The position numbers and the translations under genes are program-made. A stretch of 64,000 bases of DNA from Escherichia coli (GTDB taxonomy: Bacteria; Pseudomonadota; Gammaproteobacteria; Enterobacterales; Enterobacteriaceae). The notes beneath the pieces are model-generated. The model worked only from the letters and a program-made list of their open reading frames with translations, was not told the DNA's origin and did no database searches. Below, in pieces: positions 2,441 to 55,669 of this stretch (positions are counted from its first letter, which is position 1; each line of letters starts with the position of its first letter). The stretch lies in the NCBI RefSeq assembly GCF_003334385.1, contig NZ_QOWN01000006.1, one strand, 5' to 3'.

Positions 2441-3219
2441 TATTCCCACCCAGAATAACCAACTTTATTTTTATGCGGTTTCACCGCACCCCGTGATGTC
2501 GCCGGGAAGCCCCGGTAAAAAATAATTAGCATTAGAATAGTTGCGATAAGCTGCAATAAGCAGAACCACCTTTTTGGTTTAATATGTCCTTACAAATAGA
2601 AATGGGTCTTTACACTTATCTAAGATTTTTCCTAAATCGACGCAACTGTACTCGTCACTACACGCACATACAACGGAGGGGGGCTGCGATTTTCAATAAT
2701 GTGTGATGCAGATCACACAAAACACTCAATTACTTAACATAAATGTATAAGTCATACTTTTGTTTTGGGTGTATTTCAATCTGTTAAAAAGTTTTTCGCT
2801 ACGCTAGCAAGCAAAAATGAAACAGGAATAATCGAAATGGGATGTTGCGCACAGTCAAAATAACTCACCGTAAATAATCATCTGCTATAAATAATCACTT
2901 TCATGCAATACCAGATAAGCTATTTTTAAACAGACACTTACCGCACAACAAACTAATTAAATACAAAGAAAGGCAACAATCAACTTAATGTTAATGAAAT
3001 GTTTTACATATATTAACCACTTGTTTAATGCGGAGAATCAGTACACTATTTTCTTATAATTACATTTGAAATTATATGATCACCGGGAGTGATTGATTAA
3101 TTGTCTTTACTAATAATCAGGCTAATATTTACCTGTTTGACCGAGTTGGGATTGCGTCGTTTCTCCATTAGGAGTAAAGCTTTAATGTCACCTGAAGTTC
3201 ACAGAATAAGGAACAGGTT
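2441..3219. promoter_or_regulatory. flhDC promoter, long 5'UTR and AT-rich upstream regulatory region; divergent uspC promoter
   Basis: About 780 bp AT-rich non-coding region between divergent flhD and uspC; known regulatory hub in E. coli; no IS element present. Confidence 0.7.
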
Positions 3220-3648
3220 ATGAGCTATAGCAATATTCTTGTCGCTGTTGCGGTTACACCGGAAAGTCAGCAACTGCTGGCAAAAGCGGTATCTATCGCC
3301 AGGCCAGTAAAGGGACACATCAGTTTAATTACTCTCGCTTCCGACCCGGAAATGTACAATCAATTAGCTGCGCCGATGCTTGAAGATTTACGCAGCGTGA
3401 TGCAGGAAGAAACGCAAAGCTTTCTTGATAAGTTAATTCAGGATGCGGGGTATCCCGTTGACAAGACGTTTATTGCCTACGGTGAGTTAAGCGAACATAT
3501 TCTGGAAGTATGTCACAAGCATCATTTCGATTTGGTGATTTGCGGTAATCACAATCACAGTTTCTTTTCGCGAGCATCCTGCTCGGCGAAAAGAGTTATT
3601 GCCTCAAGTGAGGTCGATGTGCTGTTAGTTCCACTTACGGGAGATTAA
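3220..3648 (+). CDS. uspC: Universal stress protein C (142 aa)
   Basis: ORF translation matches UspC/YecG; position between flhD and otsA. Confidence 0.93.
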   Translation: MSYSNILVAVAVTPESQQLLAKAVSIARPVKGHISLITLASDPEMYNQLAAPMLEDLRSVMQEETQSFLDKLIQDAGYPVDKTFIAYGELSEHILEVCHKHHFDLVICGNHNHSFFSRASCSAKRVIASSEVDVLLVPLTGD

Positions 3649-3654
3649 CCGCTC

Positions 3655-7007
<3,353 letters not shown>

Positions 7008-15240: not shown

Positions 15241-15291
15241 CGACACTGCTTATTGCTTTGATTTTATTCTTATCTTTCCCATGGTACCCGG

Positions 15292-15378
15292 AGCGGGACT
15301 TGAACCCGCACAGCGCGAACGCCGAGGGATTTTAAATCCCTTGTGTCTACCGATTCCACCATCCGGGCTCGGGAAGAA
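15292..15378 (-). tRNA. leuZ: tRNA-Leu (87 nt)
   Basis: Reverse complement matches E. coli leuZ tRNA sequence as recalled (GCCCGGATGGTGGAATCGGTAGACACAAGGGATTTAAAATCCC...CCA). Confidence 0.95.
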
Positions 15379-15390
15379 AGTGGAGGCGCG

Positions 15391-15464
15391 TTCCGGAGTC
15401 GAACCGGACTAGACGGATTTGCAATCCGCTACATAACCGCTTTGTTAACGCGCCAAATTCTTCA
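15391..15464 (-). tRNA. cysT: tRNA-Cys (GCA), 74 nt
   Basis: Reverse complement matches E. coli cysT (GGCGCGTTAACAAAGCGGTTATGTAGCGGATTGCAAATCCG...). Confidence 0.95.
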
Positions 15465-15507
15465 GGCCTTTCAGCCAGACATCCGCTTGACGCCGATGTC
15501 TTTTAAA

Positions 15508-15584
<77 letters not shown>

Positions 15585-19576: not shown

Positions 19577-20299
19577 TCAAATTAAGCCAGTAGCGGCCGC
19601 GTAACAGGCAACCTGGGTCTTATTCGGTGCATTGATTTTTTTCTGCATGTTTTTCTGATGGAAATTGACCGTATTCTCAGAGATTGACAAAATCATCGCT
19701 ATCTCTGCTGATGTCTTCCCTTCCGCCGTCCATTTCAAAATTTCTTTTTCGCGCTTGCTGAAATTCATCTCTGGCGTCATCACTATTTCATCATTTAAAC
19801 GCATCAGAGCCATCAGACTTTCGCGCACCAGTAACTGCATTTTTAATTGCAGTTCATCACTAAGAATGGGTATTTCGCGCGCGCTGCTACGGGAAAAGGA
19901 CAAAAAGCCCAGCGCCCGGTTTGGCAGCATTAAATACTGAGTGACACCGCGGCGTAAACCATGTGCGCGCGCGGCTTCCCATAACGGCTGTGCTTCGCTG
20001 AATAAGTCATCATTCCACATTAAATGGCCCTGACTAAAGTTTTCAGGGTTCAGCACCGGATCAATTGCGAGAAAGTTTTTTGCCTGATAATAACTAACCC
20101 ACGCCTCAGGGTAATTGGTGTAGAAAGCCACTTTAGGTCGCGTGAATGGTACCGGGTGGCGAACACATAACGAATAGTAATCGTACTCTAGCTGCTGAGC
20201 CTGAAGCTCTATTTCATGGTAGACCTCTTCTGCGGCCTCCATCCTCTGAAAACGCAACAGCATCGTGCGACGCCAGCTGAAAAAATCCGTATCCTGCAT
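19577..20299 (-). CDS. sdiA: LuxR-family quorum-sensing regulator SdiA (240 aa)
   Basis: Matches SdiA from MQDTDFFSWRR. Confidence 0.96.
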   Translation of the reverse strand: MQDTDFFSWRRTMLLRFQRMEAAEEVYHEIELQAQQLEYDYYSLCVRHPVPFTRPKVAFYTNYPEAWVSYYQAKNFLAIDPVLNPENFSQGHLMWNDDLFSEAQPLWEAARAHGLRRGVTQYLMLPNRALGFLSFSRSSAREIPILSDELQLKMQLLVRESLMALMRLNDEIVMTPEMNFSKREKEILKWTAEGKTSAEIAMILSISENTVNFHQKNMQKKINAPNKTQVACYAAATGLI

Positions 20300-20346
20300 A
20301 GTAAACCGCAACGCCCCTGAGAGTGAGTATCATTTATAATGATAAT

Positions 20347-20524
20347 TCAAACTATCACATAAATAAGATTTATATATAATTTATATTATTCAGGCAATGA
20401 ATTACTTTTGCAAGCCATCGCATTCTCTTATGTTATTAATGAGTTATGCTGATTTGTTAAGCTGTTTTATCACGCTTGAAATGGCGTCCCGCCCCGACAG
20501 ATGAATCGTCGGGGCTGATTTTTT
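20347..20524 (+). ncRNA. sdsN: Candidate sigmaS-dependent sRNA SdsN (178- and 137-nt forms)
   Basis: Two TATAAT -10 boxes (20335-20340, 20375-20380) give predicted starts about 178 and 137 nt upstream of a plus-strand terminator at 20491-20524, matching the published SdsN178/SdsN137 sizes adjacent to sdiA (recalled). Confidence 0.55.
20491..20524 (+). terminator. Intrinsic terminator (GCCCCGAC-loop-GTCGGGGC followed by T-tract)
   Basis: 8-bp GC-rich stem followed by TGATTTTTT on plus strand. Confidence 0.75.
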
Positions 20525-20528
20525 CTTA

Positions 20529-21281
20529 TTATTGCAGCAGAAACTTCTCGAGGAACTGGCGGGTGCGAGGCTGCTGGGGATCGGCAAATAACGCTTTTGC
20601 TGCCCCCTGCTCGACTATCCGCCCCTGGTCCATAAAAATCGCCCGGTCCGCAACATCCCGGGCAAAGCTCATTTCGTGCGTTACAATCACCATCGTGCGC
20701 TTTTCCTGCGCCAGCTGACGGATGGTGTTCAGGACTTCGCCCACCAGCTCTGGATCCAGCGCCGACGTTGGCTCGTCAAACAAAATCACCTCAGGACGCA
20801 TTGCCAGCGCACGTGCAATCGCAACACGTTGCTGTTGACCGCCAGACAAACGACGTGGATAGCTGGTTTCTTTACCGGCCAGCCCAACTTTCGCCAACAG
20901 CTCGCGAGCGCGCGCCGTGGCCTCTTCTTTCGGTTCGCCTTTGACGATCACCGGCCCTTCAATAATGTTTTCCAGCACCGTACGATGCGGAAACAAATTA
21001 AAGTTCTGGAAGACAAACCCGACGTGCTGACGCAACTGGCGAATCAGCGATTTTTGCTGACTTAATGAACGTGCAGTATCAATAGTGATATCGCTAACGG
21101 TGATAGTTCCCGCTTCCGGTTGTTCCAGCAGATTTATGCTGCGTAGCAACGTGGTTTTGCCGGAACCACTCGGACCGATAATTGCCACCACTTCGCCAGG
21201 CTTTACCTCAAGGTCGATACCGTGCAGCACCGTCTGACCGTGAAATTTTTTCACCAGGTTCTTAACTTCAATGGCACTCAT
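20529..21281 (-). CDS. tcyN: Cystine ABC transporter ATP-binding protein TcyN (YecC), 250 aa
   Basis: ABC ATPase, Walker A GPSGSGKTT; matches YecC. Confidence 0.94.
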   Translation of the reverse strand: MSAIEVKNLVKKFHGQTVLHGIDLEVKPGEVVAIIGPSGSGKTTLLRSINLLEQPEAGTITVSDITIDTARSLSQQKSLIRQLRQHVGFVFQNFNLFPHRTVLENIIEGPVIVKGEPKEEATARARELLAKVGLAGKETSYPRRLSGGQQQRVAIARALAMRPEVILFDEPTSALDPELVGEVLNTIRQLAQEKRTMVIVTHEMSFARDVADRAIFMDQGRIVEQGAAKALFADPQQPRTRQFLEKFLLQ

Positions 21282-25419: not shown

Positions 25420-25545
<126 letters not shown>

Positions 25546-47090: not shown

Positions 47091-47177
47091 AAATCCCGAC
47101 CCTGAGGGGGTCGGGATGAAACTTGCTTAAGCAAGAAGCACTTAAAAAATTCGTTACACCAGGAAATCTGATGTGTT
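47091..47177 (-). ncRNA. dsrA: DsrA small regulatory RNA (87 nt)
   Basis: Reverse complement reads AACACATCAGATTTCCTGGTGTAACGAATTTTTTAAGTGCTTCTTGCTTAAGCAAGTTTCATCCCGACCCCCTCAGGGTCGGGATTT, matching DsrA as recalled. Confidence 0.93.
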
Positions 47178-55415: not shown

Positions 55416-55643
55416 ATTGGATGAGCCAGTCAAGACTCACTCATTTTTTGAACAAATAGATAATTTTTGCGCAACGGCAGTGAATACAGGAAAAATCGTT
55501 TTGAGCGATTTTATTTATCTTTGATATCGGCTTTATTAATTCATTTAATCAATATATTAGCACTGATTACAATTATACCTTTTTATTATTCTGTGTCATG
55601 ATGCTTACGTTATTAGCCTTTTATCGTCTTGTTTATATTTTTT

Positions 55644-55669
55644 GGGCCGGCATGATGCCGGCTTTTTTT
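55644..55669 (+). terminator. Orphan plus-strand intrinsic terminator (GGGCCGGC-ATGAT-GCCGGC followed by T7) with no upstream plus-strand gene
   Basis: GC-rich hairpin 55644-55662 followed by TTTTTTT 55663-55669; nearest upstream plus-strand CDS is absent. Confidence 0.6.

Follow-up and report, generated by a model that had tools for sequence, protein, structure and literature searches.

The small regulatory RNA gene sdsN in the spacer between sdiA and tcyN of an Escherichia coli genome

The genes sdiA and tcyN of Escherichia coli are separated by a spacer of 229 bp (20300-20528 of the window, the whole stretch of 64,000 nucleotides that was analysed), and the question raised by this spacer is what the feature on its plus strand, for which the initial annotation proposed the name SdsN, represents. 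Judged by its sequence, the feature is sdsN, a gene for a small regulatory RNA that has been described before in E. coli, and we regard this reading as nearly certain. Transcripts of the locus would start at about 20347 (SdsN178) and about 20388 (SdsN137) from two promoters and share one terminator at 20524; published papers describe them as RpoS- and Hfq-dependent repressors of nfsA, hmpA and narP. The identity, position, strand, gene ends, terminator and promoter boxes come from the present analysis, and the RpoS and Hfq dependence and the targets from published papers. The 5' ends of the 178-nt and 124-nt forms, together with the segments assigned to pairing with narP (nt 2-9) and with nfsA and hmp (nt 95-101), are predictions made here. 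The features of the locus are as follows, nucleotide (nt) numbers being those of SdsN137.

19577-20299, minus strand: sdiA, the divergent neighbour (K-12 annotation carried over by alignment)
20335-20340, plus strand: -10 box TATAAT of the upstream sdsN promoter (SdsN178), an exact match about 6-7 nt before 20347
20347-20524, plus strand: SdsN178 transcript, with its 5' end predicted by counting 178 nt back from the common 3' end
20375-20380, plus strand: -10 box TATAAT of the downstream sdsN promoter (SdsN137), an exact match about 7-8 nt before the annotated 5' end at 20388
20388-20524, plus strand: SdsN137, the annotated sdsN (b4719), placed by ungapped alignment to NC_000913.3 1996921-1997057
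20389-20396, plus strand: predicted narP seed, nt 2-9 (UUCAGGCA), forming 8 perfect pairs with narP +2 to +9 (UGCCUGAA)
20401-20524, plus strand: putative processed form SdsN124, which would start at nt 14 if it has the same 3' end
20482-20488, plus strand: predicted nfsA/hmp pairing segment, nt 95-101 (UGGCGUC), by far the best nfsA site
20491-20524, plus strand: intrinsic terminator common to all isoforms and likely Hfq-binding 3' module, with an 8-bp G+C-rich stem followed by UGAUUUUUU
20529-21281, minus strand: tcyN, the convergent neighbour, an ORF of 250 aa named tcyN in K-12 and other E. coli records

Identity, ends and published function of sdsN

The RefSeq record of K-12 MG1655 (NC_000913.3) carries a 'small regulatory RNA SdsN' (sdsN, b4719) of 137 nt at 1996921-1997057 on the plus strand, flanked by sdiA (1996110-1996832) and tcyN (1997062-1997814), both on the minus strand. 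In an ungapped alignment with 20290-20540 of the window, the K-12 gene matches 20388-20524 on the plus strand, 133 of its 137 bases being identical (97%) without gaps. The name given to the locus by the initial annotation is therefore upheld, the annotated gene lying on the predicted strand and at the predicted location between sdiA and tcyN, and the proposed RNA of about 137 nt corresponds to the annotated one in strand and at both ends. The window differs from K-12 by four substitutions, at 20463 (T for A), 20473 (C for G), 20490 (C for A) and 20501 (A for G), all of them in the 3' half of sdsN and one within the terminator loop. In SdsN137 numbering they are nt 76, 86, 103 and 114, of which nt 103 adjoins the predicted nfsA segment. 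In flanking genes, strand, ends, both TATAAT boxes and terminator stem the two are alike, and there are no indels.

The annotated 3' end of sdsN is the last T of the U-tract, at 20524. Given this common 3' end, a 178-nt RNA must begin at 20347, 41 nt before the start of SdsN137 and equivalent to 1996880 in K-12, a position reached by arithmetic from the length rather than by mapping. It falls 7 nt past the first TATAAT, and two isoforms sharing a terminator are described in the literature (PMC5736990), in agreement with the RNA of about 178 nt that had been proposed. The fold predicted for SdsN137 (-37.6 kcal/mol, z = -2.51) is better than those of shuffled sequences, and SdsN178 folds at -39.8 kcal/mol (z = -1.96).

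Existing annotation of this RNA is sparse outside the curated K-12 record. Searched at gathering scores, Rfam 15 gave no match over 20312-20528 and appears to be without an SdsN model; at relaxed thresholds MicC, VrrA and Spot 42 were matched (E 2 to 9), and we rejected these as chance matches driven by the terminator. The Rfam matches elsewhere in the window, at 47091-47177 (minus strand), 55580-55669 (plus strand), 15285-15584 (minus strand) and 25470-25511 (plus strand), were to DsrA (102.5 bits), RseX (96.8 bits), three tRNA genes and, marginally, ES036/CssrF (38.1 bits against a gathering score of 37.6). No annotated feature lay under the spacer match in 40 sampled E. coli records, whereas the curated MG1655 record does carry sdsN.

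Published work assigns SdsN137 and SdsN178 to two RpoS-dependent promoters with one shared terminator, and reports repression of NfsA (PMC5736990). [quoted passage not shown] SdsN is Hfq-dependent and represses narP, a control that is lost in the point mutant SdsN137-1 (PMC9262595), and sdsN is among the members of the Crl regulon (PMC6469107). The confirmed targets nfsA and hmpA encode a nitroreductase and an NO dioxygenase, respectively, and SdsN is described in the literature as shielding cells from nitrofurans.

Taken with these reports, the locus would be transcribed on the plus strand from both promoters, from starts at about 20347 and 20388 to the one terminator ending at 20524. The SdsN RNAs would accumulate RpoS-dependently in stationary phase, as the literature has it, and together with Hfq would act in trans as base-pairing repressors at the translation initiation regions of nfsA, hmpA and the response regulator gene narP. 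The sequence has a G+C-rich 3' hairpin, a U6 tail and internal U-rich stretches, features that resemble those of Hfq-dependent small RNAs, and it fits the pattern of a standard member of that class. The primary SdsN paper is that of Hao, Updegrove, Livingston and Storz (Nucleic Acids Res 2016), the abstract of which is said to describe SdsN178 as a poor regulator owing to unusual Hfq binding, and to report its cleavage to SdsN124, a repressor of nfsA and hmpA.

Promoters, terminator and neighbouring genes

Both TATAAT boxes noted by the initial annotation are exact and stand at the right distance from the two 5' ends, and the two sdsN promoters are 40 bp apart. The hexamer occurs 27 times in the window against 26.3 expected and so is not enriched, which means that the two boxes carry meaning through their position alone. 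Each promoter combines a perfect -10 box with an A+T-rich discriminator and no convincing -35 element, properties that are compatible with recognition by sigma-S. A C at -13 is typical of sigma-S promoters and favours them, and the base found there is T in the upstream promoter and A in the downstream one. Of the sigma-S-type -10 features that the initial annotation suggested looking for, the -13 C is absent from both boxes. As read here, the promoter sequence neither proves nor disproves RpoS dependence of sdsN.

The first half of the spacer has a G+C content of only 25-28%. On its sdiA side, the ORF list carries the sdiA frame on to a TTG at 20311 and so gives 244 aa, against 240 aa from the curated start, the ATG at 20299; two SdiA homologues in the databases have been called with an 11-residue N-terminal extension. 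A promoter-like site faces sdiA on the minus strand at 20413-20385 (TTGCAA at 20413-20408, a 17-nt spacer and AATAAT at 20390-20385). The AATAAT interleaves with the -10 box and start of SdsN137, so the site could be the sdiA promoter.

This arrangement bears on whether, besides acting in trans, the longer isoform or the promoters act in cis on sdiA, through promoter competition or as antisense to the sdiA 5' UTR. The predicted start of SdsN178 at 20347 is just 48 nt from the sdiA ATG at 20299, and a leader transcribed from the minus-strand site, the best of its kind, would be antisense to 20347 to about 20378. Against this, the site matches the consensus at only 9 of 12 positions, such matches are not above chance in the region (4 found against 2.1 expected), and no effect of SdsN on sdiA was found in the SdsN literature examined. 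We therefore consider such an additional cis role unlikely.

At the other end of the spacer, the plus-strand hairpin is formed by GCCCCGAC (20491-20498) and GTCGGGGC (20508-20515) around the loop AGATGAATC, and is followed at 20516-20524 by TGATTTTTT, of which the six T residues are 20519-20524. The tract ends 4 nt short of the stop codon (complement of 20529-20531) of tcyN, the gene for the cystine ABC transporter ATPase TcyN. In isolation, the segment 20484-20526 is predicted to fold at -17.4 kcal/mol (z = -2.86), a stability matched by 3 of 200 shuffled sequences. The plus-strand terminator placed at 20491-20524 by the initial annotation, just before the tcyN stop, is accordingly borne out in stem, U6 tract and fold. 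A scan for consensus terminators did not report the hairpin at 20491-20515, probably because its strict stem encloses a 9-nt loop and the tool has a limit of 8. In the minus-strand direction the hairpin is followed by GGGACGCCATTTCAAGCG, without a U-tract. Since the U-tract follows the hairpin on the plus strand only, it serves only a plus-strand transcript, and the earlier remark that no CDS explains the terminator is fair as regards orientation.

The same orientation counts against a reading without any small RNA, in which the hairpin would do no more than terminate the convergent dcyD-tcyL-tcyN operon and the A+T-rich sequence would be nothing but the sdiA promoter region. That reading gains from the stable hairpin that all genera examined have beside the tcyN stop, even where SdsN-like sequence is missing, from the conservation across genera of about 70 bp proximal to sdiA, and from the minus-strand promoter-like site at 20413-20385. 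It is nevertheless very improbable: the U-tract is on the plus strand only, an ncRNA is annotated here in the curated K-12 record, and SdsN has been used experimentally in several papers (PMC9262595, PMC5736990, PMC8139620). The operon-terminator and sdiA-promoter roles can coexist with a small RNA and do not replace it.

Variation within E. coli and predicted target pairing

The sdiA-tcyN spacer was found in 5375 of 5426 complete E. coli genomes, in 5369 of them over at least 80% of its length. The spacer is matched at 5386 places, one of which belongs to a plasmid record and not to a chromosome, and three genomes have spacer alleles that are only 90-95% identical. Over 20200-20640 the window allele is identical in 14 of 30 genomes among the matches listed. 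In E. coli LF4-1 (NZ_CM141450.1) an IS1 element, at about 3124-3980 of the locus (L012) with its transposase CDS at 3179-3876, sits behind the base that corresponds to 20422, some 35 nt into SdsN137, and splits the gene, a natural disruption seen in one of the 5426 genomes.

We aligned nine E. coli alleles (those of the window, K-12, O157:H7 and LF82 and five others). Both promoters and nt 1-59 are invariant, the exceptions being nt 33 and one downstream -10 box that reads TATTTT; the remaining 14 variable positions lie between nt 60 and nt 134. The upstream -10 box (20335-20340) is unchanged in all nine alleles, and the arms of the terminator stem are fixed around a variable loop. The TATTTT allele, altered at the equivalent of 20378-20379, is that of strain AVS0786, a lineage in which the change may reduce transcription of SdsN137. 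One allele has paired changes (nt 33 G to A and nt 60 U to C) that are not compensatory in the predicted structure, and the nine alleles, with few differing positions, are too similar to give the fold formal covariation support.

The pattern of substitutions also bears on whether the transcript, as a small mRNA or with a dual function, encodes the product of the ATG-initiated ORF of 35 codons at 20397-20504 that lies entirely within SdsN137. The first 19 codons specify the same residues in all nine alleles, with two synonymous differences (codons 8 and 17), but constraint on the RNA would account for this constancy just as well; 11 of the 13 variable sites in the ORF alter the amino acid, the O157 and CV261 alleles have lost the stop codon, and the only purine-rich stretch, an AGG 2 nt before the ATG, is too close to serve as a Shine-Dalgarno sequence. 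Seeing no coding constraint in the nine alleles, we rejected the 35-aa ORF as coding on its substitution pattern, and a coding role for the transcript is very hard to credit.

As a base-pairing RNA, SdsN was compared with its K-12 targets nfsA, hmp and narP by scoring short-window duplexes with opening energies, that is, with correction for accessibility. Whole-length duplexes of SdsN with nfsA, hmp and narP (RNAduplex) had energies no better than those of shuffled sequences. In the accessibility-corrected scan the best narP site was nt 2-9, a segment that is invariant in the nine alleles and the predicted pairs of which span the narP start codon. For nfsA, nt 95-101 are predicted to form 7 bp with +3 to +9 (GACGCCA) at a total of -10.5 kcal/mol, and for hmp, nt 96-101 are predicted to form 6 bp with +7 to +12 at a total of -5.5 kcal/mol. 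In the predicted fold nt 95-101 are single-stranded, between the RNA body and the terminator. The stretch nt 94-103 is among the parts of SdsN that vary most within E. coli, which is unexpected for a seed and makes the nfsA/hmp pairing assignment tentative. As predictions, these short complementarities are compatible with the reported targets nfsA, hmp and narP.

If SdsN124 has the same 3' end as the other isoforms, its start at nt 14 would remove the narP segment and keep the nfsA/hmp segment. Retention of the latter is in line with the repression of nfsA and hmpA reportedly exerted by SdsN124. The putative 5' end lies within GA|AUU (20399-20403), directly after the GA. RNase E prefers RN|WUU, and the sequence at the putative SdsN124 start resembles this preference.

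Comparison with other genera and origin of sdsN

For comparison beyond E. coli we used the loci of SdiA homologues from Salmonella enterica, two Citrobacter, Enterobacter, Klebsiella and one further relative, and a seventh, shorter locus. The order dcyD-tcyL-tcyN-spacer-sdiA-yecF-uvrY-uvrC is kept in six loci, and the seventh shows the same order from tcyL to uvrC. The tcyN-sdiA spacers of the relatives measure 219-314 bp, and neither nhmmer with all filters off nor blastn with a word size of 7 found SdsN137 in them (E at least 0.4). What is conserved across genera is the sdiA-proximal part only, about 20311-20379 (some 70 bp), with blastn E values of 2e-14 to 1e-3; in Enterobacter this block had no significant blastn match. 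Folding of eight intergenic regions, that of the window and seven more of which six are certainly not Escherichia, showed a stable hairpin beside the tcyN stop in each, and only in E. coli is it accompanied by a U6 tract on the sdsN strand. One extra locus (L023), which has the appearance of an E. coli-like assembly of low quality, contains the SdsN RNA at 95.5% identity. Among the listed members of the SdiA cluster at 90% identity there were only proteins named E. coli and no sister species. Within this sample of E. coli and the relatives named above, the body of SdsN thus appears confined to E. coli, and the promoter block and terminal hairpin appear to be older.

We also scanned species-representative genomes with the 20-mer TTCAGGCAATGAATTACTTT (nt 2-21 of SdsN137), which is invariant in the nine alleles. 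It matched three Photobacterium contigs and one Endozoicomonadaceae contig; the two matches inspected are non-coding, with similarity that ends at the 20-mer, so all four were treated as chance and rejected as homologues. The same scan gave no Escherichia match, not even E. coli, and carries no weight on distribution.

The region upstream of Salmonella sdiA (1963-1981 of locus L019) contains a 17/19 match to the Fur-box consensus, GATATTGATAATCATTATT, for which 0.01 matches are expected by chance; its core, GATAATCATTAT, is preserved in Citrobacter, Enterobacter and Klebsiella as well. The window holds no Fur-box match with 3 mismatches or fewer. The homologous E. coli site, at about 20319-20337, matches at about 12 of 19 positions and overlaps the upstream sdsN -10 box.

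Other small RNAs share parts of this biology. SdsR (RyeB) is likewise a stationary-phase, RpoS-dependent, Hfq-associated, trans-acting repressor (PMC9262595; PMC5736990), RprA likewise represses narP by pairing at the translation initiation region (PMC9262595), and FnrS likewise targets nfsA (PMC8139620). RprA and FnrS are, however, unrelated to sdsN, map elsewhere and answer to different regulators, the Rcs phosphorelay and FNR. SdsR has no sequence relationship to SdsN and is described as belonging to the conserved 'core' sRNAs of E. coli and Salmonella (PMC5137417), whereas no counterpart of the SdsN body could be detected at the syntenic position in Salmonella, Citrobacter, Enterobacter or Klebsiella.

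A publication of 2016 already covers the RNA, its isoforms, its regulators and three of its targets, and they have entered the curated annotation of K-12, so that the identification carries little weight as a discovery; the coordinates 20388-20524 (from 20347 for the long form) fill an annotation gap for this genome. The limited distribution of sdsN may itself already be described in the original 2016 paper. The absence of the body from the other sampled enterobacterial genera, with the promoter block conserved, may be of interest for research on the origin of sRNAs. One possible account, which we put forward tentatively and think somewhat less probable than its converse, is that sdsN is a young RNA assembled from older parts, namely the conserved sdiA-proximal promoter block and the tcyN-side hairpin, with the Fur-box-like site having decayed where the upstream -10 box sits. 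If true, sdsN would be a clean case of the birth of an sRNA in the interval from a divergent promoter to a terminator hairpin that was already in place.
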